DNA of 53,541 nucleotides, counting the filler, from Bipalium vagum (lineage: Eukaryota): assembly GCA_037834085.1 (NCBI GenBank). It is 3 parts of 3 records of this genome, joined end to end, with 100 filler letters (N's around TTAATTAATTAA, not from the genome) between each part and the next. Parts side by side here need not be neighbours in the genome. Positions count along the whole stretch, not along the records: positions 19,047 to 34,883 come from JBBMKC010143195.1; 2 more parts are not named here. One strand, written 5' to 3'. The position numbers and the translations under genes were made by a program. Every line of letters starts with the position of its first letter. Position 1 is the stretch's first letter. This document shows, piece by piece, positions 4,380 through 53,464 of this stretch. The notes under the pieces are model-generated. The model saw nothing but the letters and a program-made list of their open reading frames with translations, was not told the DNA's origin and ran no database searches.

Positions 4380-4816
4380 AAATTCATCAATATATCTTTC
4401 TGGGATAATCCAGAATTAAAGATATCATTCATTAAATTCCGAATACGGATCTCAAAAGTTGCAAATCGTTCATCCGAATTTTGTCTAACTTCTGACAATT
4501 CGCAAATTAAATCGGTTATTGGTTTCTTCTTCATAAATGTGTCAGCAAAGCACTACTTGGCTTCTTCATTTGCAGTTGCTTCTGTCTTGAAACTCTTCTA
4601 CAAGGTTGAGGCTTCGTCGGATAACAGCAAATAAAATACGCCGACAAGGCATAAGTCATTTATACTGAGCCATTCTTCAATATCTTTCAACCATCTTTCG
4701 GCTTTAGTAGAGCTTCGTTTGATTTGAAATCCCAAAATTTCCTGTGCATTTTTTGGTAATGCATCCATGACTAATTATTTTTTATGCTTTTGGTGTACAT
4801 TTTCGGTGTGATCGCC

Positions 4817-5158: not shown

Positions 5159-5318
5159 NNNNNNNNNNNNNNNNNNNNNNNNNNNNNNNNNNNNNNNNNN
5201 NNNNNNNNNNNNNNNNNNNNNNNNNNNNNNNNNNNNNNNNNNNNNNNNNNNNNNNNNNNNNNNNNNNNNNNNNNNNNNNNNNNNNNNNNNNNNNNNNNNN
5301 NNNNNNNNNNNNNNNNNN
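5159..5318. other. Assembly gap (N run)
   Basis: Run of N. Confidence 0.99.
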
Positions 5319-8887: not shown

Positions 8888-9213
8888 TAGAACATCTTAA
8901 ATATTTCTATTCAAGCTGGACTATATCTTAAGCTATCATTGAAATTGATTAGATTTCTCAAGACCACCTCCGTTTAGTCTCTAAACCTTCTCCATATTCT
9001 TATCAAAATGAACATAGGAACCTGGCTGTGGATTGTCCAATTCTTGATCGTAATTACTTTCGAGATCAATCATTACCTGAGAGCCTACAAAAGATTTCTT
9101 AATTGAAGTAGTAGAAATATTTTGTGGAGTTTCCCGCAATTTGAAGGTGTTGCATTTTTTAAGTTTAAAAAACACTAGCAGACTTCTATGAAAAGTCCAC
9201 TCGAGCTCAATTG
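8888..9213 (-). ncRNA. Group I self-splicing intron (IC1-like), 326 nt, no homing endonuclease, partly degenerate
   Basis: Minus strand: P AAATTGCGGGAAA (9142-9130); Q AATCCACAGCC (9034-9024); R GTTTAGAGACTAAA (8986-8973); S AAGATATAGTCC (8929-8918). P3 CACCTTC/GGAGGTG; P7 GAGACTA/TAGTCC; P9 CTTGAATA-GAAA-TATTTAAG. The 5' exon ends in U, with IGS GCTCG. Removal restores the reading frame HNFTG|PGTN. Confidence 0.9.
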
Positions 9214-13900: not shown

Positions 13901-16884
13901 TGGCATGGTAAGAATTTACTAAACATTATAAATTATAATTATTAATTATCACTTATTATATATTGTAAAAATTTGAAGTATAAAATTAAAATTGATAAAG
14001 AAAATCAGAATTCAATTTAGTGCGACAATTAATTATGGTCAACAAAAATTTTGAATTATATAAACAAATTAAATTTAGTTAAATTACAACTTAATTTAAA
14101 TAATACGATGCTGTTCAAATGAGTTCTTATATCTTTTACTTTCATCAATTTTATGAAAATTTAATTAGTTTAAAAATAATCAAGATTTCTTGATTTTACA
14201 AGGTGCGGCAGTTAATATGTGGCGCACTGTATAATCACTGGAATTTAATAGATATCAATAGTAAGTAATTCAAATATTCTTAATACTCTTAATAATTCTA
14301 AATACTCTTAATATTGTGTTAACATTTGGTTTCAGTGGTTCAACTAAACATATTTGATAAAGGACGAATATGTAGAATGCTAGAAACCGGATTGACTATT
14401 CGTGAAGTTGGGGAAAAATGAATTTGTCTACAAGAACTGTAGAAAATGGTGGACTCAGTACAGAGATCAAGGAAATTGTGATCGCCAAAATGGATCTGGA
14501 AGACCAAAAATATCAGGTGCAGACAGGATGCCAATTTGATATTGAAGGTTAAGAGAAACAGGTTCAAATCAACGACACATATGGTCAGAGAATGGAAGAT
14601 AGAAAATGATGTCAAATGCTCAAATGAGACAGTCAGGCGCAGGATTATTATGGTAGGATATCGTTCGTATCGCGCAGTTGTGAGAATTCCACTGACTCTT
14701 ACACATCGAAAAAATCGTTTAGCCTGGGCAAAGGAACATCTAATAGAATGGAGTGATGAACAATGGAAATCTGTATTATGGACAGATGAATCCAGCTTCT
14801 CGCTAGATTTCAACGATGGTAGAATACAAGTCAGGCGTTTGAAAAACGAAAGATTTGCTGACTGCTGTATTAAACATCATGATCGGTATGGCGGTGGAAG
14901 CCTCATGATCTGGTGTGGCATATCGTGGGAGGGTGGAACGACCGCAGTTATTATTGATGGTTCATTAACTGCTGCTCAGTATCTGAATGAAATTGTTAAC
15001 CAGCACATCATTCCAAATATTGCTGAACACAATCTTATGTTGCAGCAAGATAATGCTAGGCCTCACACTGCTAAAATAGTGACTGATGCTTTGCATTCCT
15101 CAAATGTTCAAGTTCTTCCATGGCTTGCACAATCTCCTGATATGTCACCTATCGAACATGCTTGGGATGATCTTGGGCGACGTGTCAGAGAAAATTATGA
15201 CCAGACTGCCACTACTACAGCAGAAATGGCAAGCAGATTAAAAGAACAGTGGCAGCAAATTCCACAACATAATTTTCAAAATTTGATTGCAAGCATGATG
15301 ATGATGATGATTACATGAATGTAGTAGCAAACGGGGATATCTTCACTTGTGTAATGATTAATAAAATTATTTTACAGAAATCTTATTTTTCATGTATGTA
15401 GTACTTTTTTGTGGAGGATTATATTATTATTATTCTTTTTGATTTGTTTTGGGTCTCACCATATGCAGACTAATAAACCTATCTAAATAGTTTTTTTGAG
15501 AACGTAATAATTTACTCTTGTGATTTAGTGTACGTCATTTAATTCTTGCTGATCCATGGGGTTTTAGCAAGCATGAAATGAGAAAAGATTCGATTAGAAG
15601 AAGTTTATTGGCCCGTATGATAATTGGATTTGGAAATTTATTTAATCCTCTGGCAATGGTTCGGTTTGTTGGTCCTCTTGGACCAAGTCTTATTAAAAAA
15701 GCCAGACCAGATTTAGGGATTTATTTTAAAGGTGATGAAAATGTAAATTATTTTTTTATGGTATAAAACTGAACTTTTTTTTAGGAAGACAATTCAGTGG
15801 AACCAGATGATTTATTCAATTATATATATCACTGTAATGCCCAATATCCGAGGTTTTATTTTTCTGTTATCGATTGACATAGTGCTGAAACAGGATATTT
15901 TAGTGGAGAGATGGCTTTCAGAAGTTTGCATTTCAATGTCGGCTGGGCTTATAATCCAATGCTTGATAGGGTTCATTCATTGGATAAATCTGTTCCAATT
16001 ACTTTTATTTATGGCGAACATTCTTGGATGGATAAGTGGCCGGCTTTATACTTTTTAAAGGAGCGACAAGATTCTTACGTAGATTTGCAAGTATGATTAT
16101 TGGCTTAATTATCTTATGATATTTATTTATTTAGTTGAAAGATAATTATTATTACCTTGGTTATCACATTCATGCTTATCTGCAACTAATATTATTATTA
16201 ATTTATTTTTTCAAAATAGTATGTATAATTGTAAAGTTTTTTGTAAAACAGTTCGTATATAACTGATAAATCTATTTTATTCATATTATTTCTTAAATCT
16301 CTTTTTGAAAACAATAAAAATTGATGATTCCCAATATGATCTCTAAATATATATGGATTTTTTTTAATAACTTCTGAAAATCAAAAAATCTAAGGGTTGA
16401 TTTAATTTTAATACTAAAATATAATAAATTTTGAAATCTTTTCAGAATTTATAGGTTTTTTAAATATTTTTACTCACTTCTACTGTATTTACATTTTTAA
16501 TTTTGATTCAATTTTTTCATTGGATAATCTTTATATTTTTTAATATTTACTTTCAATTTCAATATTTCAATTTTTTCAATATTTATTTTATTTCTTATTT
16601 ATTATAATTTTTTATTTTAAATTTTATTTCTTCATCTTTTTTAAAATTATTTTTTCACTGTTTAATAAAATTTTTAATTGATTGTGATTTTTAACTAAAA
16701 TTGAACTTTGTTCTTCTAGGTTATTCCGGAGTGTGGTCACCATATTTATGTTCAAGATTCGACAACTTTTAACCAGACAGTTAATCAGATTTGTGATAAA
16801 GTAGATACTAACTCTGATATTGCGGAAAGTGCAGAGAGAGATAGTAAATACGAAATTTGGTTTCAAAAGTATTTTAAACCTTAG
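10970..16884 (+). CDS. ABHD4: ABHD4/ABHD5-family alpha/beta hydrolase, ABHD4-like ((lyso)-N-acylphosphatidylethanolamine lipase-like). Exons 10970-10995, 11041-11135, 11182-11578, 15529-15742, 15785-15852, 15904-16090, 16720-16884
   Basis: The spliced GT-AG exons keep frame. Motifs: LHGLGAGIGLW, AIDLLGFGFSSR, LLGHSLGGY (nucleophile Ser, versus Asn in vertebrate ABHD5), HLILADPWGF, YHCNAQYPSGE, ITFIYGEHSW, GHHIY. Exon 1 is less certain. Confidence 0.9.
11736..12132. mobile_element. MITE in ABHD4 intron 3 (possibly piggyBac-type)
   Basis: ~40-bp imperfect TIRs taatcctatgctttggtggcgcaaaaataggtcaaaatttt / aaaatttgacctactttggcgccactaaagtttaggatta; TTAA at the right end, GTAA at the left. Confidence 0.7.
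13022..13079 (+). pseudogene. tRNA-Ala-derived sequence lacking the anticodon arm
   Basis: Acceptor stem GGGGATG/TATCTCC with G3:U70; D arm TAGATCAGCGGTCAGAGC; T arm CCGGG-TTCGAAT-CCCGG. The anticodon stem-loop is absent; TTTT lies just downstream. Confidence 0.75.
13400..14229 (-). mobile_element. Truncated Tc1-like element (5' TIR, HTH, first catalytic D)
   Basis: TIR TA|CAGTGCGCCACATATTAACTG on the minus strand at 14229; MSDIEKGMIKAYHE HTH; WKQVIWSDEKKFNLD in another frame. Confidence 0.75.
14340..15420 (+). mobile_element. Tc1 (DD34E) transposase, disrupted at the N-terminus; intact core ORF 14536-15318
   Basis: W.SVLWTDES, GGGSLMIWCGI, QQDNARPH and SPDMSPIEHAW, with exactly 34 residues between D and E. 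TIR-like end gtacttttttgtggaggattata. Confidence 0.92.
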
Positions 16885-18946: not shown

Positions 18947-19046
18947 NNNNNNNNNNNNNNNNNNNNNNNNNNNNNNNNNNNNNNNNNNNNTTAATTAATT
19001 AANNNNNNNNNNNNNNNNNNNNNNNNNNNNNNNNNNNNNNNNNNNN
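18947..19046. other. Assembly join: 100-nt N spacer with TTAATTAATTAA linker
   Basis: N run, a 12-mer with stops in all six frames, N run; same structure at 34884-34983. Confidence 0.97.
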
Positions 19047-19789
19047 GTTGAAATATTTCGAATAGATTAGATCAATACTTATTCAAAACTTAACGTGGCT
19101 CGTTATAATTAATAAAATTCAGAGGGGTTTAGAGTGTGTTACGCTCGTGTTCGAATATAAAAGAGATTGAGTTTATGTAATATTTTTAATCGACTGGGTA
19201 TGAAAATATTTATATTATATATTATATATTATTTTCATTAGTATATCAAATTCAAATAGAACTGAATAAAAACACTCAAATGGTAGATATCGTAATAAAA
19301 ATCGTTCACTAAGACAAACAAAAAAAAACGATATTAATTTTATAAAATATATTTACTTTTTAAAAACTTTGCTGAACAAATAAACAAATTATTTTATTGA
19401 TATATCCCGGAGAAATATTAATACAAGATGAATTTTAATGAATACAAGCCTCAAGAACCCTGAAAAGAACAAGCGCCTCCCCGACCTACTAGATGTAGAG
19501 AAGGCAAAAAAATAAGTAATAAGAACACAACAAAGAAAATTAATTTGATGATGACAGAATAATTGGGGAGGTATCCAATTATTCCGTGAAGACTACAACC
19601 AAGCCCCAATCAACCAAACCAAAAGCAGAAGCAACCATTTCCAATCCAAGTCAAAAATCTGACATTGTGTCTATTAACATTATTTGTAACATTATGTAAT
19701 CATTAATTCCTTCCTACTTTCAATTTTTTTTCTCAGTTACATTAACATTATTCTTGACATTATGTGATCATTAATTATTCTTGATATTA

Positions 19790-20375
19790 TGTGATCATTA
19801 TTTCTTTTGATGTTGTGTATAATTTGATATAATCCCAAGTTGATAATTTTGGTGTAAAAATATATATATTGTAAAATCGTTCTTGACTAATCTGTTTTAA
19901 AAAAAATAATAAATAATAATAAAATAATAATTAAGTAATAATAAATAATGATTAAGGAGAATATAAAATATCATAGTAAATAATGTATAATATTAGTATT
20001 ATTTATGTGTAAGTGCAGATTAATATATATTATTAAAGTTTATAATATTTATTTATTTATTAAAGTAAAATATTGAAAAATTAAGAAAATTTATAATAAA
20101 GTAACATTAAGTTACTAATAATAGAACATAGGTAAGAATTTTTATATTGGGAAATAAGAAAATGGTAAAAATAGAAAAAAGAAGGATAGCAGAATTATAT
20201 TAGGGAAAAGAAAGTTACTGATTATAGAAAAGAAGGTAAAAAGAACATTATAAAAGAAAACAAAAATTACAAGAAGACAGAAACGAAAAAATAATTTAGA
20301 TCTGACAAGTACAGTTCATTATCAGTTAAAGCACGACAGAAAATTTAAATCAAAGCCTACAGTTCGTGACATTCT
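19790..20375 (+). repeat. Dispersed AT-rich repeat, homologous to ~33960-34600 (inverted)
   Basis: Shared blocks, e.g. ttactaataatagaa...aagaaaatggtaaaaatagaaaaaagaagga.a.cagaat.atat.taggga and atcaa(a)gcctaca. Confidence 0.65.
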
Positions 20376-20379
20376 AATT

Positions 20380-20830
20380 TTCCAGAATTGGAAAGATAAT
20401 TATATAATTGGTTTCTGCAACAACGATCTATGAAATAAATCGTAACCAATGATATGCTCAAAGTGAAAACCATGGATAGACATATATAGACATCTAAGTC
20501 TTCCTGTTACATTATTACTCGTGGATAATGCAACTTGTCATCAAACATTAATGTCAGTGACAGAACATGAAGATTTATACTTTCCGCCCAATATGACACT
20601 TTATTTACAACCTTTTGATCAATATGTCATCAAATCATTTAAATGTTGTTTTCAGAAGCATCTTCTGAAAACACTAGGATATAGAAAAGAATATAAACAC
20701 GTTTCACATAGCAGCATAAATCTTAAAAATGTTGCATACATGGCAGTGGAATCGTGGAATGAAGTTCCTGAAATTGTTATAGAGAATGCTTTTAAGCATT
20801 TATATTCATCTAATATTACATTTTTATTGG
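20380..20830 (+). mobile_element. pogo/Tigger (CENP-B HTH + DDE_1) transposase fragment
   Basis: ELER*LYNWFLQQR...VTNDMLK; LLLVDNATCH, FPPNMT..LQPFDQ.VIKSFK, SWNEV....IENAF. Confidence 0.8.
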
Positions 20831-20834
20831 ATTT

Positions 20835-22452
20835 ACCAAAAAGATGAATTCGGCAAGGAATTTGTAGTGGCATATGGTTCACATGCAATGAGCAAACATG
20901 AAGTTGGATATTGCATCACTCACAAGGAATTACTGGCGATGTATTACTTTTGTAATCATTTCAGGCACTGTTTGTACTGAAAGCGATTTACGTTAAGGTC
21001 GGACCATAAAGCTATTGCTTTTATGATGGTTTCAAAGAAACCAATAACTCCACAATTTCAGAATTGGATAAACTTTTTGAGTGGATTGCATATAAAATTC
21101 GAATACAGACGTGGTAGTGAACACAACAACGCCGATTCAATGTCAAGAACAAGATTTAATCAATGCATTCAATGTCAAATGAGACATTAGGACGCAAAGA
21201 CATCTAAAAATCCAGTAAGATCAATCAATGTTGAACAACCATGATGAATGTGTTTCAAATAATTATAATGACAGCTCAAAGATAAACCCGCTTGATGGTA
21301 AAAAACGTGGATCCCGGCGAACAAACAAAAAGAATTCATCATGTCGGCTCATAAAATGCTGACACACGCTGGTGCAGAGAAAGTAATTTCATATCTGTGT
21401 CAAAATTTTGATATGCAACGCATGTGGGAATGTGTTAGAGAGGTTATTGACGGTTGTGAGGACTGCAAAAGAACCAAAACCATGTCGATAAAAATAAAAG
21501 AACAAACAAGAGAAATTTGAAAAAATATTTTTGATGTGTGTGGACCCTTTGCAGTGACCAGAGTTGAAAAGAGGTATATTTTAGGTATTATTGATCATTT
21601 CAGCCGATACATAAAACTAATGCCAATTGTAAGACAAGACGAGCAAACTATATGTAAAGCCTTAAAAGAAAAGTGGATTTTGATATTTGGAGCTCCAAAA
21701 GAAATAAACGTTGACAGTGGAAGGAGTTTTCTGTCAGCACAAATGAAGACGCTTGCAAGCCATGTCAAAGCAACTCTATGAGTATCAAGTCCTTACCATC
21801 AAAACAGCAACGGAATGATAGAGAGACAATTCAGGACAATAAGAGAGATGCTGATGGCGTCTCAAAAGTCAAGAAAAGGTGAAACCTGGGCCTCAATACT
21901 TCCAGATATCGAATTTACTATAAATGCTACGGTGCAGAAGGCAACAGGTAGAAGTCCAGCGGAAATTATATTCGAAAAGAAAATATTTCGTGATGAGTGG
22001 TATGGCAAAGATAACACATATTCAGATGATCAATCAACAGCGGCAGAAAAAACAAAAAGGATTTTCGATATTGGAGAAAAAGTATTGATAAAAACTGAAA
22101 ATAGAAGAAAAATGGATGATCGTTTTTTGGGACCATTCACAGTGATAGAAAAAATACATCCAAGGAGATATAAAATCCGAGATGAGCTAGGTCGAACTCT
22201 GGAGCATAATGTGGAGAAGATGCGCAAACTTTTATCGAGCGGGGATGTTATATAATAATTTAAAGTATTTGTTTATATAAATTAGTTTTGATAAATAAAC
22301 AGTTTTTAAAAAGTAGTTTAGTGTTTTGCATTTAATGAATAATTTAGGAGAAGAATCAATAATCAACCTATCAATTATTATTAAAATTTTCGATAAAAAG
22401 ATGATTTTTTAATCGTTTAATTGGGGGTTCATGATGCTCTCTCAATATTACA
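20835..22452 (+). mobile_element. Gypsy 3' fragment: RNase H-integrase pseudogene, PPT and probable 3' LTR (from 22246)
   Basis: VVAYGSH...YCITHKELLA; DVCGPF, IIDHFSRY, FGAPKEINVDSG, NGMIERQFRT, GPF motif. GAGCGGGGA is followed by TGTTATAT; possible LTR end ATATTACA at 22452. Confidence 0.85.
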
Positions 22453-22529
22453 TCGAGATGCTATGATGATATCTTATTAACGGTTTTTGATTTATTTATA
22501 ATTAAGGGAGTGAAATATGTATCTAGCAA

Positions 22530-23063
22530 TCACCAATGGTGCTGATAATATATGTATTGCTCAAATTCAATCATATGCTTTCCAATTGGTATATTATTTA
22601 GGGTTATGTTTGTGCTATTTTTATACAATATGCCACATGATTTTTTATGAGTATAGGGTGAATATATAGTGCATACTATTTTTTCGAGTAAATGTGCTGT
22701 GTATTTCCAACTTCTACTGTCTGAAAAAATTGTAATGGGTAATTGGAGGTTTTGGAATTTAACCTGATGATAAATGAGGCAATGTTTATTTTGGGAGATA
22801 TCGGTAATAGTAATGTTAATGTAATATTGATCAAATTTGTCTAAATATCTTAGTAGGATTGTTTGTGAGCCTGGATGTAAGGGTGTTGATGACAATTGAG
22901 TGGTTTTTGTTATGACAGATGTATTAATATCGGTGGATGTCATGGGTTCTACTAGAATAGCAATAGTTCGGAAAAGTGTAAATATAGCAATATTGGTGCG
23001 ATAACCTGTCCATTTAAAGGATTTTACTTGTATACAGCATAGTAATAAGAGTGTGAAAGACAA
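22530..23063 (-). CDS. Post-integrase ORF with signal-peptide-like N-terminus (env position), unknown family
   Basis: SFTLLLLCCIQVKS hydrophobic leader, NxT/S sequons (NIT, NST), several Cys; lies immediately after the integrase C-terminus. Confidence 0.4.
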   Translation of the reverse strand: MSFTLLLLCCIQVKSFKWTGYRTNIAIFTLFRTIAILVEPMTSTDINTSVITKTTQLSSTPLHPGSQTILLRYLDKFDQYYINITITDISQNKHCLIYHQVKFQNLQLPITIFSDSRSWKYTAHLLEKIVCTIYSPYTHKKSCGILYKNSTNITLNNIPIGKHMIEFEQYIYYQHHW

Positions 23064-23199
23064 AAGTTTATTTGAACGTAAGTTGTATCGAGGAGAAGGT
23101 GATGTGTCGATTTGTGGTTTTTTGGCTTTATAAATGTTATTAGATGTGGTCAGTTGATCAATATTTTCAATAATATTGTCATTTGCTTTCTTACATCGG

Positions 23200-26100
23200 T
23201 TTATGAGTATTAATTTTGCATCTTTTAATGGTTTTCGGGGATCTCTTAAAAGAAAATTACAGCCAAGAATCCTTTCGACAATGAAAGGTCCTTTAAATGT
23301 CCGGGTAAATTTTGGGGATTGTCCTTTTTTTAACGCTTGGATTTTCTACCATCACTCTATCTCCTATATTAATATTGGGATTTTAAACTTTTTTATCATA
23401 ATTTTCTTTCATAGCTTCCTGATTATATTTGATGGATAAACCAGCTTTGCTCCATGCCTCTTGCATTCTCTTTTTCATGATTGTAACATAATCGGGCTCC
23501 TACTCATCGGTTTTTGAAAAATAAGGTCAATTGACAAATTAGAGTTTCTTAGATACATTAAGTAAAAAGGGGTAAAGCCTGTTCCTATTTTAATGGCATT
23601 TCGATAGGCGAAAAGGCATGATGGAATATGAATATCCCAATCATTTTGCTTATTGTTTACGTATGAGGCTATCATGTTAGTTAAAGTATAATTAAATCTC
23701 TCTACTAAGCCATCAGTTTGTGGGTGATAAGGGGTGGTATTTAATTTTAATATGTTAAAATAAGTGTTAATAGAGGCTAATAACTCGCTCATATCTTCTT
23801 AGTATTCCATACCGGAATATGATTTGTTCAACAAAAATTTTGGATATTGTATCTGCTTTGTGGTTTGGCATGGGAAATGCCTCTGGCCATTTAGTAAGAT
23901 AGTCGCTCATAACTAGGATGTAAACATTTCCTGAAACGGTTTGAGGAATTGGTCATACTATGTCCATGGCTATCATTTCCATGGGAGCAGAGGGTACTGG
24001 CATAGGTTTCAGTGGTGCTATAAATTTTCTACCTGTATTCCTACGTGCTTGGCATATTTTGCACGTAATACACCATTGTTTAATATCTTTGATCATATTC
24101 AGTCAGTAGTGCTTTTGGCTTATACGGGAACGGATTTTACGATTTGATAAATGTCCACGGATTGTTCCATCATGATATTGTACTAATACTGACTCTCGCA
24201 AACTTTCTGGTACAAAATAACTGAATTTAGATGTTCTTTATATTTTAATAATCCTTCATCCCAATTTGACTTAGTAAGCATACTTCAGGCATTCTGGATA
24301 GTGCGTCTGCATTTGCATTCGCCTTTCCTTTTCGGTAAATGATTTTATAATTGTATTCTGTATTTTAAGTGACCATCATATAAGGCGGAATGATGTGTCT
24401 CTGTGCTTTTCTAAATAAGCCAAGGGATTATGGTTAGTATATACAATAAATTCTCGATCCCATAAATGAGTTCGGAATTTTGTAACGCCAAATATGATTG
24501 CTAGGCATTCCAATTCTATTACAGCATAATGTTTTTCATGGGGTTTAAGACTTCTGCTAGCATAGGCGATTGCATAATATCTATTCCTAATACTCCACCA
24601 ATAGCAGTCCGCTAGCATCACACATTAATTCAAATTGTCTTTTGGGATCAGGGTAGCGTAAGATTGGTGATGACACTAAACATTGTTTTAATTTATCAAA
24701 AACTGTTTGATGATCAGGAGTCCATTTAAAAGTCTGTTCCTTTTTTAATAGCTTATTTAGGGGTGCTGCGATTTGAGCGAAGTTTTTAACAAATCTTCGG
24801 TAATAGTTGGCTAAACCGAGAAATATTTAAACTTGCTTGGGCGTTTTGGGAACACTTGCATTTTTTACTTTTTCTATTATTTCAGGTCAGGTTCTATGCC
24901 ATTTTATGATATTATGTGCCCTATATATTTTACGGAATTTTTTCCCCATTCACATTTTGTGGGTTTAATTTTGAAACCAGCTACTTTAATTCATTTTAAT
25001 ACTTCCTCAATGTCCTTCATATGGGTGTCGAAGTCAGGGGAAAATACAATGATGTCGTCTATGTATACTATGGCATGTGCAATGTCCATGAGCATAAGGT
25101 TCATAGCTCTTTGAAAAGTGGCGGGTGCTCCTGTAAGATCAAATGGCATCTTATTGAATTCATATACACCATTTTCTGTTATGAATGCTGTAGCTTCTCG
25201 TGACTGTTCGGCTACTTTGATGTTCATGTATCCTTATTGTAAATCAATTTTAGTAAACAGCTTAGCTGTACCCAATTTGTCGAACATGTCTTCGATTAAT
25301 GGGAGTGGATCTTTCACAGTAACTTCATTTAGTTTTCGGTAGTCTATGCACACTCTCCATTCTCCTCCTTTTTTTTTACAATTATCATCGGTGAAGACCA
25401 TGGTGATGAGCTTGGGCTGATAATGCCAGTTTTTAGCCAGTGAGCTATTTGCTTAACCGCCTCTGTTTTTAAAGTGTGTGGGGTGCGGTAAGCTCGTTGT
25501 TTAATGGGTTGTAGATTTGTGATGCGTATTTCATGTTGCAGAATGTTGACTGTGCCGACGTCAAATTCATGTTTCGCAAATGCGTCTTTATAAATTCTTA
25601 ATAATTGTGTAAATCGTTTTTGTTGGAGATATGTTAGAGTAGTTGTAGTTACCTGAACTGGTTCGTAGACTTTCTTTGCCGGAGTTATGACATCTGTGTG
25701 TGGAACATATTCATTAATAGTTCCCACTCTCATTCCGGGGTGAATTTTTCGTGGTTTTACATCAAAATTAGCTATTCTTATGGGTATTCGGTTACGATTC
25801 ACAATGGCTAACGTGGCTTGTGTGGTGAGATTACTGTTATTAACGAATTTCTCAGATGACTCAAAGATCACTTCTTGTCCATTAGGCAAATTTGTAGCTA
25901 ATAAACATATCTGCTCGTGTCGGGCGGGTATAATGGCTTGATCTAGTACAACGGCTACATGGTCAGCATCCTTGCATCCTCGTGGGTGTACGAATTAAAA
26001 GGATTAAAGGATTAAACCTGGATTAAACCTGGGATTTTTGATAAAATATCCATGCCGATTATACATCCGAGTTCATTATTCTCCATTACTTTTAATGTGT

Positions 26101-26330
26101 GATCTATGTCGTGACCCATTATTCTAATAATGCTTCTGCATGTTCCTAATAAGGGTACTGACTTACCATCTATACCTATTACTGATATGGGTGATGTGTT
26201 TACGGCGAATTGTTCCTCTGTATTTAAAATTCGAGCGTCAATAAGAGAAGTCTGTGCGCCAGTATCTACTAGAGCCAGAACTCTGTGTTTATTTACTTTG
26301 ATTGCAATCATGGGTCGTGTTTCTTTGGTT
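23200..26330 (-). pseudogene. pol: aspartic protease, RT, RNase H, integrase (gypsy order)
   Basis: ALVDTGAQTSLI; [15 protein letters not shown]; MPFDLTGAPATFQR, VYIDDI; IAYASRSL...ELECLAI; TPYHPQTDGLVERFN; KGPF C-terminal motif. Confidence 0.95.
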
Positions 26331-26489
26331 GTGAATGAGTTTCTCACATAATATTCGTTAGGAGTTGGTGAATTATTATCATTTCTATTTACAGGGTTGA
26401 AGTTAAATTCGGAAAATATGTATATTTGATCAAACAATGATGGAACTTGTTGCATACTGATTGTGGCATTATATTCGGCTGCGGCTTGT

Positions 26490-27100
26490 AGGATTATAGT
26501 TTCTGTTAGTTGCTTATCCCGGGCCATGTCTAGCGCAGTTTGACCATATATATGTCGGTGAAATAGGTTTCCATCGGGTTTTTAAAGCAATATTTTAACT
26601 CTTTCTGTATCAACTTCATAGCGACTTGCAAGATGAAGGGGTGTTTCATCATTTAAATATTCTCTTTCATTTACATCTGCCATAAACTCATTGTCATATC
26701 CTCTGAGTTCAATCGTTAATTTTACTGATTCTACAAAATTTGATGTAGGGATGTTTGAATGTTGTTTTGATATCGTTGAAACATTTGGGGTAAGTGCTTG
26801 CATTGAACTTGTATCATTATATATCGTAAAGCATCTATATTGGTGGCAGCTAAGGCATGGTTTATGACTGATTTACCTGCTTTATCCCAATGGTCTATTT
26901 TACATCCACTAATTTGATTGTTACATTTAATGAAACATCACATGCAGGGGTTATGAGATGTGGTGTATGTCCAAAGGTATTCTCAAAATTGAGGACCCAT
27001 CTAAAAATACTTTTATAATTTCGATAATTTCGAGTGCCATTGATGAATTTCCTTTTAGAATCGCATTATGTACCCGGGTATCACCAAATTTATCTGGGAC
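26490..27100 (-). pseudogene. Ankyrin-repeat domain (IkB/cactus-like), ~5 repeats, frameshifted, directly upstream of the protease
   Basis: DKFGDTRVHNAILKG; LNFENTFGHTP; SGCKIDHWDKAGKSVINHA; ADVNEREYLNDETPLHLA...VKILL; YGQTALDMA (in frame with the protease ORF 26012-26527). Confidence 0.75.
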
Positions 27101-27568
27101 TGTGAAAAAAGCTGGTATTTTCGAGCCATTTCATTAAATGTTTCTTCCTTTGATAAACCGAATGTGAAATAATGAGCTATTTATCATGCCAAATTTTATT
27201 GAAATATAAATATTTTTTCGGCTTCATTCTAGGGGCTTTTCAGCCCAACCATGTATTTCTAAACGCATCATGACATCATTTTCTTGAATGGACTTTCGAA
27301 TTTTAAATAGCTCAGATTGGGGATATAATGTAGATCGGTTTGGCATTTTGTCTAGGCTGTTGGTTTGGGGTGTTTGGTATTCTATTGTCTCTATTATAGA
27401 GGGTGTTTTTGCTTTCTTGGAAATATTGGTTTTAAATTTATTGTAAACTTGTGAGGTGGTACTGTAGATGTTTTTTGGTTCCTCTATATTCCAATTGGGC
27501 CAGTAATCTTTGAGTTCTGTGATTGCGGGTTTTGGCAGTGTTGATTCATTGTCATCATTGCTATTATT

Positions 27569-29503
27569 TTACTTCCTATGGTGATGATGTCGGTGCTTTG
27601 AAGTTCTGGTAATGGGTTTGTACCTATAATGGCATTGCTTTCTCAATAAATCAATATGTTTTCGATGCCTTTTATGCAATTCTCGGTTGGCTATTGGTGG
27701 AAATAAGGCTAAGATTAATTTCCAAAAACATCCTAGTGCGTAATGTAAGCTGCGACCTGACATAAAACTGCTACCGATTCCTGTTAGTATTTGACAGATG
27801 AAATATATACCTGAAAATCCCGCAACCCATGTACCGAATGTATTAAATCCTCCACAAATATACGTGATGACATTCTTTGCTGCATGAATGTAATGGTGTG
27901 TTCCGAATAATAGGTTATAATCCATCTTTCCTTGCTGGGCATTGTAAATTTTCGTAATCATTTCTATTATTCCTCTCTCTTGGGCCTGAGGAAAGAGTAT
28001 TACTTTCCTGGCTTGGTCAATGTCTTCAGGGGAGTATATTCCTCCTTCATTAATAGATGGTAGTGGTTTAAATTCGACTATATTTTGCATCTCTATTGCT
28101 TCTATTGTTTGTACTTTTTCTCTTGGTGGCTTCCTTTCTGGTATACATTGCTCGCCAATTTTATATAGAGGGGATATGATGGGACCACACATGGCTATTC
28201 GAGGCTGTAAGTGTACTTCTAGTATTATTCGAGTTAATGGGGATACAAACCGTAATTTCTTTTGATAAATAAATCACTAGTGCATTCGTTATATTTTGCC
28301 AATGGAACATTTACTTTCTCGCATTTGTACGTTTACAATGCTTCACTCATTTTACGACCGAAAACGCCATCTTGTACTAATAAGGGTGATGTCAGTTCGG
28401 TGTTATTGATGGCTAGGAGTAATCGATTTTTTAATATTTCACGTCTTAATTTGCAGTCGTTTAAAATGGTCTCTTGATATACATCCTTTAATTGTGTTTG
28501 TAAATCGTGATAAAGATAGTCTATCTTATTATTTAAGTACATATTTAGCTTAATATCTGAACTATCTTTTGGCATTGGTTTTGATAATCTATCTTTAGTG
28601 ACTTATATCCCTTTATAATTGGTTTCATATACTGCTACTCCACACTTGACTATCTGTTTCTTAATAATCAATCGGATTAGTTCCTTTTTATCCGTTGTTA
28701 TCAGAACAATGGGTGTTTTTGCTTCATCTATGGCAGAACTTCGTCTAGGGGCTGTTCGGTAATTTTCTGGAATTTTAGTATATTCATTTTGGGTGGGATT
28801 AAGTCGTCCACCTGTTATTTCTTGAAAAATTGTAAATTTCAGACTTCTCAGGTTACAGTGGTCTTTATTGTTATCATATAGTAGTGCTGCTTCTTGTGTA
28901 ACATAATATCCCTTTTTTAGATTGCAACTTTGTTTAAATAATAATTGTCCGGTAATAACATCGAATACACCTTCATACGTAAGTAGTTCAACTTGATAGT
29001 TCTCTATATCTACTACTTCATTAACGTCTTGTCCAGATACTTTCTTCTGTTCCCCTTCACATTTTCCATCATAATTTATTGATCCCCTTGTATTTGCCTT
29101 GTTATCATATTTTTCTTCATTGCTATGGCTATTTTGTCGTCTATTCGAATTTTATTGAACTGGAAGGCATTTCGCATGTTTTGGCTGTTACACGTACTTC
29201 TCGGGGTAATAATTTTGGCGGATATTATTGAGTTATGGTTATGCATACCACAATAATACCGTAAGGTTAAAAGTGTCAACCTTACCTCTGTACTCCTTCA
29301 CTTGGCTACGAAAATAATCGCTGATACATAGTATGCTGATGTTTTGGCGGTTAAGTTATTTGGTGAAAGGTAAGTGCATTCATGTGTATCTATGAGCGAA
29401 TATATTTTTCCAAATTTTGTGTTAGCGCAATCATAAGCTATCAATGCTCTCCTGGTTTAAACAGTGAAAACATCAACATCATCATCATCCTCCATTGCAT
29501 CAT
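27569..29503 (-). pseudogene. Chuvirus-like (class III, gB-related) envelope glycoprotein, disrupted
   Basis: Leader MMQWRMMMMLMFSL then ALIAYDC...YSLIDTHEC; YYCGMHNHNS; CKLRREILKNRLLLA; GGIYSPEDI....ILFP; TM region FNTFGTWVAGFSGIYF...LHYALG. Confidence 0.8.
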
Positions 29504-30302
29504 GTTTGATTTACTGCTGAATTAGCCGTAGAGTTATTGTTTATTGTATTTAGCGTTTGCCATCCTATCATGTTTTCAAGAAAGGGTTCTATTATTTCTT
29601 TTATATTTTTTGTAGTGTCTCTAATTACCGTTTGTATTTTCTCTGGGGATTGTTTAATGCTTTGCATTGCCTGTTGAATTAGGACTGTGAGTCCAGTTAA
29701 ACATGTTCCACGATTAGGTTTATTTGTAATGAGGTCTTGTATTTGGGATAAATTCATGTCATTAAGACTTTTTATTTTAGGAATTAGATTTTTTATTTTA
29801 TTTATTAAATTGTAATTTTCACTATCATTTGGGCAGTTATCAGTTTGTAATGCATGAATTATAGTGGTGATTTTGTGCAGTAGCTCATTTGGAATGTTTT
29901 CATTATCGAAATCACTATTTACTTGTTCTGCCAATTTTTGCGTCTGTTTAAATATAAGAGTTTGTTTACTTGATTTAATGTATCCGTTTTTGTCAACTGC
30001 TTAATGTAGGGTATAATGTCCGATACAGGGTTTGGTTTTTTAATTTTGATTGCTGGTTTCTGAGTTTCTATTTCAGGACCCGAAACTATATCGGTTTTTA
30101 TAGTTTGGTCTCATGCTTGTGATGTTATCGGCTTATCTCTAGGTGGGATTGTAACGTATTCTGGGGTGTTAAGCTCATTGCTATCTTCTGATATTTGTGC
30201 ATCATCTATATCTATGGGCCAATATTGTGGATTCATTCGAACTATGGGTTGATAGTCTTGTTTTAAAATTTCCTGTAATACTACATCAGTTTCATCTATT
30301 TC

Positions 30303-31241
30303 CTACCATACCTTATTGATTATTTCGTGTTTTTCCTGCTGTATTGGTATTTTCTCCTCTGATTCTATAGGAACTTCACAATACTCTGGCTCGACCTCCT
30401 TAGGGGGAATTTGTGCTTCTTTTATGGTATCTGTCAGATCTATTACTTCGGTTATCGTTGTCTGTTTTTGAGTATCAGGATAATGTACCTGAATTATATT
30501 CGTTTTACGAGGTTTACAACCACAATCTATTAAGTGCTCGTCATCATCTATTAGTTTACCGAATATTTCTAATAGTGGAATTGTAGGGAGTTGCAATTTT
30601 TCTGCTGCTTTTTTGCGTAATTTTTGTACTTTGCTATTCAGGGGCATTATATACGTTTCACTAGTGTTATTGGGCATTTGTAGCTGAATCGTTATTGTTT
30701 TATATTCGTTATTACTTTGTCTCAATGCTTGACCATATTTTCTTTAGATGCTTTCTAGCTCTTTTTGATAAACCGCTGAAAAGGTTGCCCAATTTCGAAT
30801 TTTATCATAATTTAGCTTGGATTTAATCATTTCTTGCGTTAGTTTAACGGGGATATTATTCATGTATTTTTTATCCTGTTCACTTACTTCTGATATACTG
30901 CATATCATTTCTTCATTAATAACCTCTTCTGGCTGAAAACTTATCTCAATTACGTTGTACCTACCTGGTATAATGCCAGATTCTATTAAACTATTATTAA
31001 TATTAAGTTTTGTTTTATAATAATGGAGGTTAACTGGTCTTTTTAGGCTCTCTTGTATATCAGTTAATATTTCTTGCACCATGGTTTTTGTGGTGGCTAC
31101 GTTTCGTACAGTTAAATTATCAGGATATTTGTAATATATGGTGAAAATCGTTTCTATCTCTGACCATTCCTTTCCTATTTTTCGTAATAGCTGAAGCTCT
31201 ATTGGGGAACTTACTCTATGAAATCGTAAGAAATGTTTCAC
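30303..31241 (-). pseudogene. Two tandem ubiquitin-like (beta-grasp) domain candidates downstream of gag
   Basis: ITIQLQMPNN..ETYIMPLNSKVQKLRKKAAEKLQLP...LEIFGKLIDDDEHLIDCGC....IIQV and FTIYYKYP....TMVQEILTDIQE....LHYYKTKLNINNSLIESGI...NVIEI follow the ubiquitin hydrophobic pattern. Confidence 0.55.
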
Positions 31242-31489
31242 TTCTTCGATGTTATCAATTGATGTTTCCCCTGTTATCTATTTTTGTGCTATCTCGTTAG
31301 CGTTTCTTGCCTCTATCGCCATATCAAAAATAATAGTGATGTGGTTAGATTTTTCTTGTTCGGGTTCACCTAATCTTTCTACTTTCGCATATTCCTCCCT
31401 GAGCAGTGATTCTAATCTCTCAATGTGTGACATACTTGCCTCAATTGTGTCATTAATTTCCTCATTATAGTTTACAATATTTTTTTAGG

Positions 31490-32735
31490 CGTTAATGCGG
31501 GACAACTTCTCTGTAAGTGTCTAAATTTTCCGCAAATAAAACATTTTATCTTTCCCTCAACATTCACTTGTTGACGTTGGGGTGAATTAAAATTTATGCC
31601 TTGGGATACATTTATACTTTGAGGTGAATTAAAAGTTATACTCCTACACACTTCTTTTACATGTCCTCTTTTCCCACATTGTAAACATAATACATTTTGC
31701 GCTCTGCATTCAGTTGCATTATGATTTCTTCGTGCACATTTAGTACATTGTTTATCAAATTGATTATTTGCACTATTGAAATCAAATTGTTTATTTCCGG
31801 AATTATTATATTCAAATGGCTTATTTCCATAATTATTGTTGTATTAAAATGCTTTATTATTATACTCAAATTGCTTATTAATTATTCTTAATTATTATTA
31901 TTAAACTCAAAGGGTTTATTTGCAAAATTATTCCCACTATTATAATTATTTCTATTTGGGTATTGATTCACTGGGGCTCTCGTTTGATTTCGTTGGCTAC
32001 CTCTATCTAAAACATTATAAGGCTTAGTGAATTATTCATTAAATCGGACTCTTTTGTCATTCGGACATTCTCTGGCTCCATGACCCATTTCATTACATTT
32101 ATAACATTGTATTTGACTATTATTATTTGTTTTAATAGGTGATTTTGGCCTTAATCCGAGGGACTGTGGACCTTTATTTATTACATTTATTGTTTTCATT
32201 TCTACTGCAGTTTCGGCTAATTTTGCTTTTTGAATTAATTGCTCAAATGCTTCATGTCTATATGATAGCTGCTTTAATTTCATACTTTAAACCTGACCAC
32301 CATTGGTCTTTTACAATAACTTTAGTGTTTTCGTCCCACTTATCTTGTAAACCGAAAGCTGTTTGGGCTACGGTTCTTAAATTATGGGTATATTCTGATA
32401 ATGTTTCATTTAATTTTTGCTTTAAACCATAAGATTGTTGCCTAATTAAATGACCTGTCAATTGTGAAAATTTTTTCCTCTAATGCTGCTTTAACTGATG
32501 CCCAATTGTAATCTTTACCTTTGGCTACCATATCTAAATATGCGTCTCTTGCTGCACCTTTTAAATAAATGGGAAGTCTGTTCATCATTACTTTTTCATT
32601 AAAACCATATACACGCATTATTGTATAATAGTTTGATAAGAAATCAGGTAATTCAGCTAGATTTCCTTTGTAGGTATCCATTTTAATATAACCAGTGTAC
32701 GTACTACTATTGTCTTCCTGTTCACTTTCAGTCAT
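31490..32735 (-). pseudogene. gag with four CCHC zinc knuckles
   Basis: Capsid-like LPIYLKGAARDAY...W..VK..L and LKQK.NETLSEY...L. Knuckles CYKCNEMGHGAREC, CTKCARRNHNATEC, CLQCGKRGH, CFICGKFRHLQRSC. Confidence 0.85.
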
Positions 32736-33015
32736 TTTAGTTAATTTATTTTTATTACTTTTTTCTGTAAAAAGAGGGCGAGTTTGAGAACGAGTGATGA
32801 TAGGTCTTTCAACAATTAGACTTTGCTTTTTGGACTTTTTTACTTTTACTTTTTTAATTTGACTATCAGATTCGGAATTAATAGTTGTTACGTTTGGAAA
32901 ATTATTATTATTATCTTCAGAATCAAAATTATTATTACCAGTATCAAGATTATTATTATTATTAGCCGTTTTATTTTTATATGCTCCGAACGTTTACCAC
33001 GTTGGGCTCACCAAA

Positions 33016-33567
33016 TGTTAAGATCCTAAGAGATGGGATAAGTTGATGTTAAAGATGGAGCTTACTGTGATACTTAGACCTTAACGGTTGAAGGTTGCTT
33101 TTAAATGTGTTCTGTTAAAATGACTGAGAAAACAATTTACTTTAAAATGCTTTTATTTTATTCAAAATAAAGTCACAATTACGTGATATCGATTCTAGCT
33201 GATTTAAGGGCTTTAAAGTGATTTTATTAATTATAATTATTATTTAGAAAAATCCTCTCGCTCTTAGGCCAGAGGTCCTCAGTATAAGAAGAAAAAATAT
33301 ACTTCGCCAGGGTGTGAAGTAAAAACAAATAAAAGAAAAAGGCAATGAGAAATTGTAACTGAAAAAGTTAAATAATCTTCAGGTCCTGGCTTGAGTATTT
33401 AATTACTTATTTAGTACAAACTGTGTCTTGTCTAACAAGACACGCCTATTTAATAATGAAATAATAAAATTATAAAATATTTATTTAAGATCGATACTAG
33501 TCTTGTGAACCTTTGGTTCCAAGCTAGTTTTATATTATATTAATAATATGTGTATATATAATTAACA
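33016..33567 (-). repeat. 5' LTR (~552 bp), followed by PBS at ~32997-33013
   Basis: TGTTAA...TTAACA termini; minus strand reads ...TTAACA-TT-TGGTGAGCCCAACGTGG. The outer boundary is inferred from the inverted terminal motif only. Confidence 0.7.
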
Positions 33568-33959
33568 ATAAAAACTTTATTATACTGAATGTAGTATATT
33601 AAAATAAATACTCAATCAACACTGGAATACTAAAATCAACTATTAATATAAACGTAACTGTTAAATACGGTAGAAAATTAAAATAAAACTAATAAAAACA
33701 CTACATTTATTAAAAAAACTTTGTTACAAATTTTTGTAACAAGTTAATAAAAAAAATTTAGAAACTTACTTACAAAGATCAAAGCATAAACATATATTTC
33801 AGATGTGATAGAATTTCTTCTTTTCTTCTTGGCTGGCTGTTCTCCGATTTGACTTGTCTTACAAATTCTTTTTCAATTATTCCTTTGATTCTCGGTTTTG
33901 ATTTTTGTTGTTGTTTCTTTTTTTTTTAAATTGCTAGTTTCTTTTATGAGTCGAATACA

Positions 33960-34600
33960 ATGATGTAGGCTTGATTAGCTTTTATGGAGGTCTGCTTGAT
34001 TTCTATGATGTATCTGATCACGACTGAACCGGTAAAAAATTATTTTGGTTTTGGTGTAGACTATAACTTGTTTAGCGGAGGTCTGCTCTCTGTTGACTAA
34101 TCGAGTTTTATCTAGTTAAAATTTTATTTTGTTTTCTGATTGTCTTATAATTTCTGCTTTCTTTTATATAATTCTTTTTTCCTTTTTATTTATAATTAGT
34201 AAATTTCTCTCCCTAAATATGATTCTGTTGTCCTTCTTTTTTTTTCTATTTTTACCATTTTCTTATAAAAATTCTTTCTTAATTTCTATTATTAGTAAGT
34301 TATTGTTGCACTAATATAAATTTTCTTAAAATACAGATAAATAAATAAATAAATAAATATAATTACAATTAGTACAGATTAATAATAATTACTATATATT
34401 ATTCAACAAAGTATTATTTTATACCTTATCTTATTTCGAAATTTCATTTTTTTAATTTATTATTTATTACTGCTTAATTATTAATCAGTCAAAATCGACT
34501 TACAATGAATATATTTTTGGATTATTAACCATTTCAAATAAAATTAAAAGAACAATACAATATCAAATAATACCAAGTATCATATACATATATAAAAGGA
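33960..34600 (-). repeat. Dispersed AT-rich repeat, second copy (inverted relative to 19790-20375)
   Basis: Reverse complement aligns by eye with ~19.8-20.4 kb. Confidence 0.6.
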
Positions 34601-34883
34601 AGGAGAATTTATCAGATATCGTGGATCACAAATAATGTCAAAATATCAGTTTTTGTTTGTCCAGAAAATGGTGAGACTACACATGATGTTATTAAGTGGG
34701 CTACAGAAGAAAATGAGGGTAATCATTTAATTGAATGGACCCAATTTTTATTGGCTGACGGTTTATTCAATTAAATGATTACCAATATCTTAACTGTGCA
34801 ATAGAGAAAAATTTTTTCTAGGTCTAAGCATAAAAAGTATTGAAGAAAATCTTAATAAATTTTAAATCATTTTAATTAATTTT

Positions 34884-34983
34884 NNNNNNNNNNNNNNNNN
34901 NNNNNNNNNNNNNNNNNNNNNNNNNNNTTAATTAATTAANNNNNNNNNNNNNNNNNNNNNNNNNNNNNNNNNNNNNNNNNNNN
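34884..34983. other. Assembly join with TTAATTAATTAA linker
   Basis: Same structure as 18947-19046. Confidence 0.97.
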
Positions 34984-35744: not shown

Positions 35745-37135
35745 CAGGGTGTTTAATATGTATGTTAACACACTTTCATTCTAAATATTTTTACAAACAA
35801 TAAAGATATAAAGTAGGTAACACTTTTTTATTTGAATAACATATATTAAAAAACAAATACAATACGTAATTATATAATTTGACGCCCGTTGATAGCTAGG
35901 CAATGGCTCAATCGAGATTGTACATTTAGACATACTCGCTGACATATTCCAGTATTTACTTCATTACAAACATGACTGATTTTATCCTTGATCTCAGCGA
36001 TTGTATGAGATTTGTCTCTGTAAAAATTTTGTTTCACATATCCCCACAAGAAGTCTGGCGGAGTTATATCGGGCGAATCCAGCGATCTGGAAACTTTTTG
36101 TCTAGCCAGTTCCTGCCTTTTTGCGAATAGTGCGCAGGTGCCCCGTCGTGTTGTAATTACTTACGACCTCTTGTTATTCTAGGCCAATAAAACTTTTCCA
36201 GCATCTCCAGGTATGACTCACTAGTTACCGTATGATCTTATGATCTCTCAAGTATTTTCATTATTTCATCTTTGTGAATTCCTTTCTTCCTGAAAAATGT
36301 CGTCCACAAACACTTCTATGGTGCTGTTAGAGCTAAATATTTTCCCAGTTAGAGTTATATAAATTATATAATGGAAAGGGCAGATGGCCCAATGATACCT
36401 TGTAAACTTAAACTACACTACACAATTATCCCGACCCTGGAGTTTCTAACAGGAATTGTTACTTTAGAGTTAGAGTAGGCCCAATAGCAGCAATTGTGGC
36501 GGTTAACAAATCCATTGAGCATGACCTAACTCTCGTCTGAGCATATTATCGTGTTGATCAAGGAAAAGTCATTTTGGAATTGTACCAACATTGTCTGACA
36601 AAATTTCATTCTTCGGTCAACGTCGTCATCGCTGATCTCAATTACGGTTGACGGCTTAAATGAATGAAAGTCTGCTTCATTAATTGCCTTATAATAACTT
36701 CTTACAGTCATGTCAAGTTCACTAGCACCCTGTCGAACTGACAAATTGCTAGATTCTTCATCCAATTTTTCACTCTTTGAATTGTTTTCACTGTTAATAC
36801 GGAACGAGGTCGACCGGATTTTACTTGGTCATGAACACTTCCAGTCTTCTTAAACTTTTCCACAATTTTTTTAATTGTTTGGTTACCTGGTGGTGGAGTG
36901 ATAAACTTCTTTTTCCAATGCCTAATTACTTCTTCAAAATTATCAAATTTGGAGTTCCATACAACAATTTGAATTCTTTCTTCCATCGAAAAACGTCAAG
37001 CTATTTTATTTTAAAATTAACTAAATGGATTAAATAAAACTTTTAATCCATATAAACAAATAAACAACAAATATATTTATTTTTTAACTTGTAATTTAAA
37101 AATAAAGTATTTTAACATACATTATAAACACCCTG
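35745..37135 (-). mobile_element. Full-length but decayed Tc1/mariner-superfamily element (DDxD, rosa/maT-like)
   Basis: TIRs TA|CAGGGTGTTTAATATGTATGTTAA and TTAACATACATTATAAACACCCTG|TA; KFKKTGSVHD..KSGRPRSV, ICSDES, QHDGAPAHY, SPDITPPDFLWG. Confidence 0.88.
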
Positions 37136-41115: not shown

Positions 41116-42042
41116 TATATGATAACCCATGCCATGTTCACTGAAGAAATGAAAGAGGAAATTCGAATACCAATCTAATACTGAGAATTAAAACTTCTGC
41201 TAGGTAAAGCAAAATTTCACTGAAATTACAGCCACGCATTGACGATAACGGACTTGGGTTATAAAATGCTTTGATATAGACATTTCATTCTAATTCAACC
41301 ATCAGCTTCGACGTAGTATTCCACGTTACATATCCCAACAGCCAGAATAAAGTCATTGTCTCTACTATCATCCATCGGTGAATTTAAAAAAATAATCGTG
41401 GTTTATTATTAATAAATAAAATGTATTTCACTGTTTAAACAAATTATGTAATAAACCTATAATTTAATTGCTTAATTTTATATTTATGCCCCTCCCCAAC
41501 CTTTAAATGTCAAATCTTGGCATAAAGAATAAACACTTGCTTATCACTGTCTTACCGTAATATATAATATATATCACTAATAATTAAATATTTATAGAAA
41601 ACAATCCACCAAATTGAACAAAGCTTAATTTGGCCATAAAATAACGAAAACCAGAAATAATTGATCAAGTTGAGATGGACTGAAAAAATGATAATGATGA
41701 TTTAAGAAACCAAACGATTAATTTGATTTTGTGTCTGAATAATTTTTTTCGACTTAATTAAATAAATATATAAAATAAAATATTTTCAATCAATAAATTT
41801 TTAATTCCACTATTTCTCCTCTCTAAAATAATGCCTCCGTCGCTGGTGATTTGGAAATATGTAAATTTATCCATTTATACAAAGCTTTCAATGGGTGAAT
41901 TTTTTCAACGAAAAATTGGATTTCACTTTATCAATAGTTAATTAAATTAAATTAAATTTATAATATTTTTTTCAAGAGAGAATATGAGAATTTTTTTTCA
42001 GTTTCGCTTGACATGATTTTTTTAACTTTGGTCAGTTTTAGA

Positions 42043-47642: not shown

Positions 47643-47720
<78 letters not shown>

Positions 47721-53201: not shown

Positions 53202-53464
53202 GTACTGTTAATTTTATTTATTAATTAAGTAATATTCTAAATAAAATAGATAAAATATTTCTAAAGTGTAAACTGTGTTCATGAAAGTCTTCAAAATATA
53301 ATTAAATAAAAATGGCTGTAAATCGATTGTAATTGTAAAAATTATAAAATAATTAAATAAATAAATTTATCAGCACAATTTAATGGGCAATTGAAATGGC
53401 TTAGTTGATCTTTAATTAAAAGAAAATTATCAAGTGCAATGAACGAAGCTATCTTAAATAATAA

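Follow-up and report, generated by a model that had tools for sequence, protein, structure and literature searches.

Large DNA viruses are known to encode IκB mimics, and such mimicry has been proposed for one RNA virus; among the former, polydnavirus vankyrins and ASFV A238L are degron-less viral ankyrin proteins which are proposed or shown IκB mimics. In that RNA virus, planarian secretory cell nidovirus (PSCNV), an ankyrin (ANK) domain is described at 11394-11555 and predicted to lie in one protein with the transmembrane (TM) segment TM4. Its closest reported homologs are planarian proteins (BLAST E 3e-23 to 8e-14), two with an N-terminal Rel-homology domain (RHD); these homologs are the C-terminal domains of planarian RHD-ANK (NF-κB precursor-type) proteins, and the authors proposed that the viral domain is an IκB mimic (PMC6211748). 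Among retroelements, the giant gypsy-like Burro/GYPSM1 elements of planarians encode env in frame within the gag-pol interval, similar to mononegavirus fusion proteins, and the Burro description records ankyrin repeats, BIR, MATH, BCL2-like and ubiquitin-like domains, with ankyrin in Burro1/GYPSM1 (PMC6431247). Other Burro cargo, the Burro1 B-IAP, is reported to be functional (PMC13465017). GAG-ENV-POL errantiviruses with an HSV/gB-type env are described from Platyhelminthes, Nematoda and Bryozoa, including six listed Schmidtea families (PMC13524379), and ankyrin goes unmentioned in the available text of PMC8532177. Both the ankyrin cargo of Burro1/GYPSM1 (PMC6431247) and the proposal of IκB mimicry for PSCNV (PMC6211748) were therefore on record, and what appears to be new here is a link between a retroelement module and PSCNV/IκB. 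In the literature searched we found nothing tying retrotransposon ankyrins to IκB, RHD-ANK or PSCNV, and Grohme 2018, Lee 2026 and Jurka 2007 may annotate the domain more closely.

The window analysed here, meaning the whole stretch of 53,541 nucleotides with filler included, is from Bipalium vagum (GenBank assembly GCA_037834085.1) and joins three parts of three records, positions 19,047 to 34,883 being from JBBMKC010143195.1. Gaps occur at 5159-5318, 18947-19046 and 34884-34983, two of which show a 12-nt TTAA-repeat spacer; the latter two gaps are filler joins between records, not genome sequence. The minus strand of the middle part holds what sequence comparison identifies as a decayed, env-bearing Ty3/gypsy element of Burro-like gag-env-pol layout (Table 1). 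Pfam on minus frames 22400-33100 detected, in order, zf-CCHC, Monjiviricetes_fusion, ankyrin (weak), retropepsin, RT, RNase H and integrase. By Pfam and tblastn, gag and class III env are followed by PR-RT-RH-IN, the gene order of Ty3/gypsy GAG-ENV-POL errantiviruses, with env matching Monjiviricetes_fusion in two frames (E 1.6e-23 and 2.1e-22). The RT is 56-58% identical (tblastn) to those of three database proteins, P0012, P0029 and P0033, with which it also grouped loosely in an RT tree (82/87), on a long window branch caused by the alignment running out of frame. We take the primer binding site to be tRNA-Trp-like.

Table 1. Features of the decayed retroelement and its ankyrin module, listed from the 5' end of the element; positions are those of the window.
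Feature	Position	Strand	Basis
Primer binding site	32996..33013	-	Sequence; two bases past the 3' end of the 5' LTR (LTR end 33016)
gag with CCHC zinc knuckles, broken	31480..32993	-	Pfam zf-CCHC, E 9e-5
Accessory region, gag-env interval	29500..31480	-	tblastn to P0004 449-554, E 1e-7
Class III (gB/chuvirus-like) env glycoprotein, broken	27600..29456	-	Pfam; tblastn with P0004, P0033, P0035
env cytoplasmic tail and linker	27224..27600	-	Common to P0002 (tblastn)
Helical extension ahead of repeat 1, family-specific; other frame, stops	27124..27213	-	Profile A3
Ankyrin repeats, six, in three reading frames	26477..27121	-	A2 profile pieces; tblastn; 32% identity to P0012 over 237 columns
Retropepsin protease, DTGA at 26266-26255	26012..26335	-	Pfam RVP, E 2e-9; ORF shared with last repeat
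Spacer, RT, RNase H, integrase; several frame changes	23184..25994	-	Pfam RVT_1, RT_RNaseH, Integrase_H2C2
Post-integrase extension with signal-peptide-like hydrophobic stretch	22533..23100	-	Sequence

The resemblance to Burro/GYPSM1 extends to the position of env between gag and pol, to accessory domains within the polyprotein and to the presence of ankyrin repeats, while the shared ubiquitin-like region is weak here, being a possible domain at about 30780-30470 in the accessory region (Pfam ubiquitin E 1.0 only). A helical ORF at 29500-30000 (minus strand) directly precedes env, where Burro carries a BCL2-like domain, and shows BH1/BH2-like features by eye; a BCL2-like identity for it found no database support. 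The Burro elements differ in an internal region of up to 25 kb, compared with about 10.5 kb here from the primer binding site to the end of the last ORF, and in carrying MATH and BIR domains, neither of which Pfam found in our element. Furthermore, the module here sits directly before the protease, and the Burro description as published makes no IκB assignment (PMC6431247). Gene order and env class are also shared with the GAG-ENV-POL errantiviruses, in whose main description the word "ankyrin" occurs 0 times in the main text (PMC13524379).

No direct-repeat partner for the 5' LTR, and hence no matching 3' LTR, was found in 19047-22600, and the 3' end of the element abuts another gypsy fragment on the plus strand. 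This fragment (20837-22255) lies head to head with the main element and has a polypurine tract and LTR start near 22245; it and a further fragment at 3426-4415 (minus strand) encode RNase H/integrase, about 23-26% identical to relatives of the main element. An inverted repeat pair (19925-20297 and 34119-34483, 73% over 384 nt) stands on both sides of the retroelements and a DDE_1 transposase fragment occupies 20467-20847, together possibly an older DNA transposon into which the retroelements inserted. Other mobile sequence in the window includes a Tc1/mariner transposase ORF (14482-15318, plus strand), more mariner-like fragments (35870-36995), and a minus-strand ORF at 7915-8896 in which an integrase core fragment (E 0.001) comes after a phospholipase A2-like domain of parvovirus type (Pfam E 1.9e-5). 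The latter ORF looks to us like a Polinton/adintovirus-type remnant. Host exons on the plus strand encode an alpha/beta hydrolase (11133-11582) and a voltage-gated potassium channel (41956-53224; BTB_2 and Ion_trans, Shaw-like by eye).

The ankyrin module has the env tail on one side and the protease on the other. Translation and profiles together place the whole module at about 27213-26477 (minus strand), comprising six repeats and a helical N-terminal extension. The original prediction had described ankyrin cargo ahead of the retrotransposon protease, with about five repeats across frameshifts at 26490..27100 and the last one in frame with the DTGA protease. The repeats, the frameshifts and the placement directly before the protease were all confirmed, and a single ORF (26012-26581) holds both the last repeat and the protease; the count rises to six on alignment to P0012, and the extension, at about 27213-27124, begins upstream of the predicted span. 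Within the repeats the frame changes three times, near 27010, 26905 and 26740, and an in-frame stop is found at 26582-26584.

Evidence for the repeats comes from A2, a family profile built from six related natural proteins, which matched the window in four colinear pieces: 27121-27011 (profile positions 36-72, 24.7 bits), 27005-26901 (75-109, 22.9 bits), 26910-26728 (109-169, 26.9 bits) and 26743-26477 (169-254, 17.8 bits). The best domains in 20 block-shuffled windows scored 0.8-7.8 bits, against 18-27 for the real pieces, and the sole further A2 match in the real window reached 9.3 bits (E 0.019). Searching the window by tblastn with P0012, an intact relative, chained the same four pieces (E 4e-18). 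Pfam scores for ankyrin on the window alone were weak and under the curated cut-off (Ank_2 E 1.9e-5). The N-terminal extension matched positions 12-32 of profile A3 (6.9 bits, E 9e-4 against three local frames), and the P0012 model shows a helical pair at this point. This copy is too broken to make an ankyrin protein and is dead.

A phmmer search over 1.84 billion representatives gave 84 matches, and the 24 matching the protease part or both parts were scanned with Pfam. Two of them carried the ankyrin module: P0012, an RT-RH-IN-protease-ANK-TM polyprotein, and P0015, arranged as ANK-TM-TM-protease. Profile searching added P0086-P0089 (4 of 3227 candidates) as well as P0090 and P0091. In a later profile search 14 of 7999 scored candidates passed, four of them family members at E 3.7e-64 or better and the remaining ten long multi-repeat proteins at E 6e-31 or worse, which sets the family clearly apart from generic ankyrins. 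The resulting eight proteins (P0012, P0015, P0086-P0091) are 24-38% identical to the window module and all have the N-terminal extension and a distinctive first repeat. A retropepsin shares the chain in three of the eight (P0012, P0015 and P0091), two others (P0086 and P0087) are fragments, and P0015 and P0090 end after about five repeats. Five members extend well beyond the repeats, and in four of these (P0012, P0015, P0088 and P0091) a strong hydrophobic segment follows some 10-75 residues past them; in the fifth, P0090, the segment is under the threshold used. The family tree, drawn without the generic ankyrin matches of the phmmer search as outgroups since these may be of human origin, supported one of six inner branches and gave the long-branched window row no supported place.

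In P0089 no retroelement domain is present, and the protein may represent a piece of a host RHD-ANK protein or have its origin in a different virus. Its N-terminus had no Pfam, PDB or Atlas match and a pLDDT below 50, and a reading of this region as the end of an IPT domain plus a nuclear localisation signal, as in a host RHD-ANK fragment, found no support. The post-integrase extension of our element showed no similarity to the post-ankyrin region of P0012. As a separate observation, P0004, P0020, P0029, P0033 and P0012 have two to four retropepsin-like domains and membrane-anchored post-integrase extensions, an unusually modular pol.

As to whether other copies carry the module, the nearest protease relative does not, and more distant elements have it at other positions. 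This nearest relative, P0002 (about 49%), runs from env tail to protease: its residues 2-142 align by tblastn to 27694-27275 and 168-270 to 26332-26024, and about 940 nt of the window are represented by 25 residues in P0002. Ankyrin was likewise absent from six env-protease polyproteins among the 24 scanned. No database protein had the order env-ANK-protease, and a word-indexed search with the last repeats plus protease against proteins of 694-2000 aa retrieved 0 of 535 candidates. Judged by sequence comparison, the module is real retroelement cargo, but optional and mobile, since relatives carry it elsewhere and P0002 and the six polyproteins are without it.

The original prediction had also likened the order of the repeats to IκB, Cactus and Bcl-3. 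The module shares with IκBα/β, Bcl-3 and the C-terminal domains of p100/p105 a six-repeat stack and an in-register alignment from repeat 1, although identity to them is about 20% and they do not stand clearly above other ankyrin families. IκB and NF-κB precursor ANK domains have 6-7 repeats; here the six-repeat stack is seen in the P0012 alignment, and the P0012 model has an ankyrin fold. Against the PDB, the best natural match of P0089 was Bcl-3 (E 1.1e-15), aligned from its first repeat. Profile A2 scored Kidins220 (1.8e-20) above Bcl-3 (4e-16) with Notch and MIB1 close behind, and with A1 Bcl-3 was the seventh natural entry, yet aligned as one continuous stretch (positions 41-248). Overall, Bcl-3 was the first or second natural protein in two of five PDB searches, and IκBα and IκBβ were absent among the matches listed in the five sequence searches. 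A profile of the extension and repeat 1 had two natural ankyrins among the matches listed, MIB1 (6e-5) and p100 (4ot9, E 0.003). The extension itself aligned to nothing in this PDB profile search, and its equation with the helical segment before repeat 1 of p100/p105 was not borne out, A3 having aligned to p100 only at positions 37-69. The window's own frame matched DARPins and generic ankyrins without discrimination, and the ESM Atlas returned only generic ankyrin clusters.

When the P0012 module was modelled with AlphaFold (mean pLDDT 71.6; confident in repeats 1-4, below 50 at residues 190-242), the model superposed on IκBα with matching register beginning at repeat 1 (Z 16.3, rmsd 2.3, 145 residues), although IκBα ties with DARPins and RFXANK. 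Foldseek against the PDB returned mostly DARPins and did not separate the ankyrin families. The PDB sequence searches lean towards the IκB family, but on their own do not distinguish it from Notch, MIB1 or Kidins220.

A viral comparison was more discriminating. We searched BFVD with models of two relatives, P0012 and P0089, and not with the broken sequence of the window. For P0012, the PSCNV polyprotein came first (E 1.1e-9, 31% identity over 188 columns, rmsd 2.4; next match 1.2e-4), and for P0089 PSCNV was again first (E 8.4e-12; next 2.5e-6), aligned over 325 columns. In both models PSCNV thus stands about five orders of magnitude above other viral ankyrins, and by arithmetic the fragment matched should contain the PSCNV ANK domain as mapped in PMC6211748. 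The original prediction had drawn its parallel with vankyrins and A238L. A putative viral mimic was indeed matched in PSCNV, but vankyrin-b2.1 ranked only 31st with the P0012 model (E 6.8e-4, 15% identity), within the generic background, and A238L was not among the best 50 BFVD matches listed. Vankyrins and A238L are stand-alone genes of DNA viruses, which suggests independent capture, and the module showed no special affinity to them in this search. PSCNV and our module have more in common: both ANK domains belong to polyproteins, are predicted in one protein with a TM segment, at least in relatives of the module, and are proposed IκB mimics, although PSCNV is an RNA virus with three recognised repeats whereas the module has six and belongs to a reverse-transcribing element. 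As PSCNV is the best viral structural match and its ANK domain is nearest to planarian RHD-ANK proteins, an IκB-type ancestry is supported indirectly, via PSCNV and not via vankyrins; the path from module to RHD-ANK takes two steps, the last from PMC6211748. The predicted likeness to IκB, Cactus and Bcl-3 is in this way partly supported, as ancestry through PSCNV and RHD-ANK, and left ambiguous by the PDB searches.

In Schmidtea, seven divergent RHD genes are described, one of them a class I NF-κB homolog; knockdown of a Relish-like planarian gene was lethal and left transgene expression unchanged, and the planarian RHD genes are presented without a demonstrated immune role (PMC13563047). One survey reports no p50/p105 in Platyhelminthes (PMC11432056). 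The AT-rich animal context, the element layout and the PSCNV match suggest a triclad flatworm as host, and RHD targets would potentially be present if the host is a planarian. NF-κB precursors (p105, p100, Relish) have an N-terminal RHD in the chain, whereas Pfam found no RHD in the element or its eight relatives. Canonical IκB (α/β/ε, Cactus) has an N-terminal DSGxxS degron; a DSGx(2-3)S motif was absent here, in three window frames (26000-27700), and in all eight relatives.

We propose that an ancestor of the element bore a movable ankyrin module, of a family common to related retroelements and PSCNV, whose most likely source is a flatworm RHD-ANK protein of NF-κB precursor type, specifically its IκB-like C-terminal half. 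The module would have been translated inside a gag-env-pol polyprotein, probably a single one. Since protease, RT and integrase have to be cytosolic and the module continues in frame into the protease, it would have lain on that side of the membrane as well. Retropepsins cut themselves out at their N-terminus. Such self-excision would cut behind the module, which would be left on the env tail at the membrane or freed by a second cut. Release from the Pol polyprotein had been predicted originally; the module does seem to be part of a probable gag-env-pol polyprotein, but its place, with the env tail before it and the protease after, would allow it to remain attached to env. The hydrophobic segment in four of five relatives, together with the ANK-TM4 arrangement of PSCNV, suggests that membrane tethering recurs. 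A hydropathy scan of one frame read from 28273 to 26012 found no hydrophobic segment, but missed the env anchor too, and is weak evidence on topology.

Lacking a degron, the module would be a signal-insensitive decoy which retains host RHD factors outside the nucleus and lowers stress or antiviral transcription in the cells where the element is expressed. We rate the chances as even that it served as such an IκB-type decoy, probably while tethered to a membrane. The module of this decayed element suggests that such elements once carried an immune-dampening decoy.

It is distinctly unlikely, in our view, that a module of host RHD-ANK/IκB origin was instead repurposed, either as a membrane-anchored scaffold for ubiquitin/apoptosis machinery or particle assembly or for non-immune RHD modulation, for example in stem-cell survival. 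The dominance of apoptosis and ubiquitin domains in described Burro cargo (PMC6431247) and the report of an essential and not an immune role for the Relish-like gene of planarians (PMC13563047) fit such a change of role, as do the absence from repeats 1-3 of the TPLH histidines usual in ankyrins and the shortening of some members. However, the register with IκBα repeats 1-4 has been kept, and a lytic RNA virus without a retroelement life cycle retains the same module, as would be expected of a host-directed role.

We think it quite improbable that the module moved in by template switching from a related element and is here a neutral passenger, or disables the copy. Its absence from P0002, the lack of any database protein with the same order, an out-of-frame junction between the upstream linker and the module, and a higher density of frame changes (three over 633 nt, env having two over 1798 nt) would all be consistent with a passenger. 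Against this, a single open frame runs across the 3' junction and on through the protease, the GC content of the module (0.34) resembles the 0.35 of env and pol and differs from the 0.26 of the host flank, its borders lack any target-site-like repeat of more than 7 nt, and an identity of only 24-38% to any relative indicates a long separate history. The least probable explanation is an origin of the repeats in a different ankyrin family (MIB1-, Notch- or Kidins220-like), with a resemblance to IκB by convergence of generic motifs. Kidins220, ankyrins, MIB1 and Notch do equal or outscore Bcl-3 in PDB profile searches, and the ESM Atlas gave only generic clusters and Foldseek mostly DARPins. However, whole-sequence scores favour long multi-repeat chains, and PSCNV, reported to have RHD-ANK proteins as its closest cellular relatives (PMC6211748), exceeded other viral ankyrins by the same wide interval with two models.

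Returning to the decoy, a wider reading is possible though somewhat unlikely: that env-bearing retrotransposons of flatworms captured an IκB decoy, degron-less and membrane-tethered, from a host NF-κB precursor, shuffle it among polyprotein positions, and may have given PSCNV its ANK domain. Retroelements are suggested as the vehicle because both they and PSCNV keep ANK beside a TM segment. The value of the finding is limited, as ankyrin cargo was already known in Burro1, this copy is dead and RHD binding is only putative. If true, the wider reading would mean that a retroelement encodes an IκB mimic and that retroelements and RNA viruses have exchanged an immune modulator. Conservation of an IκB-type module throughout a family of endogenous env-bearing elements would indicate that retroelements interfere with host Rel signalling, and would give a handle on the role of the divergent planarian RHD factors and on the source of the ankyrin domain of the largest nidovirus.
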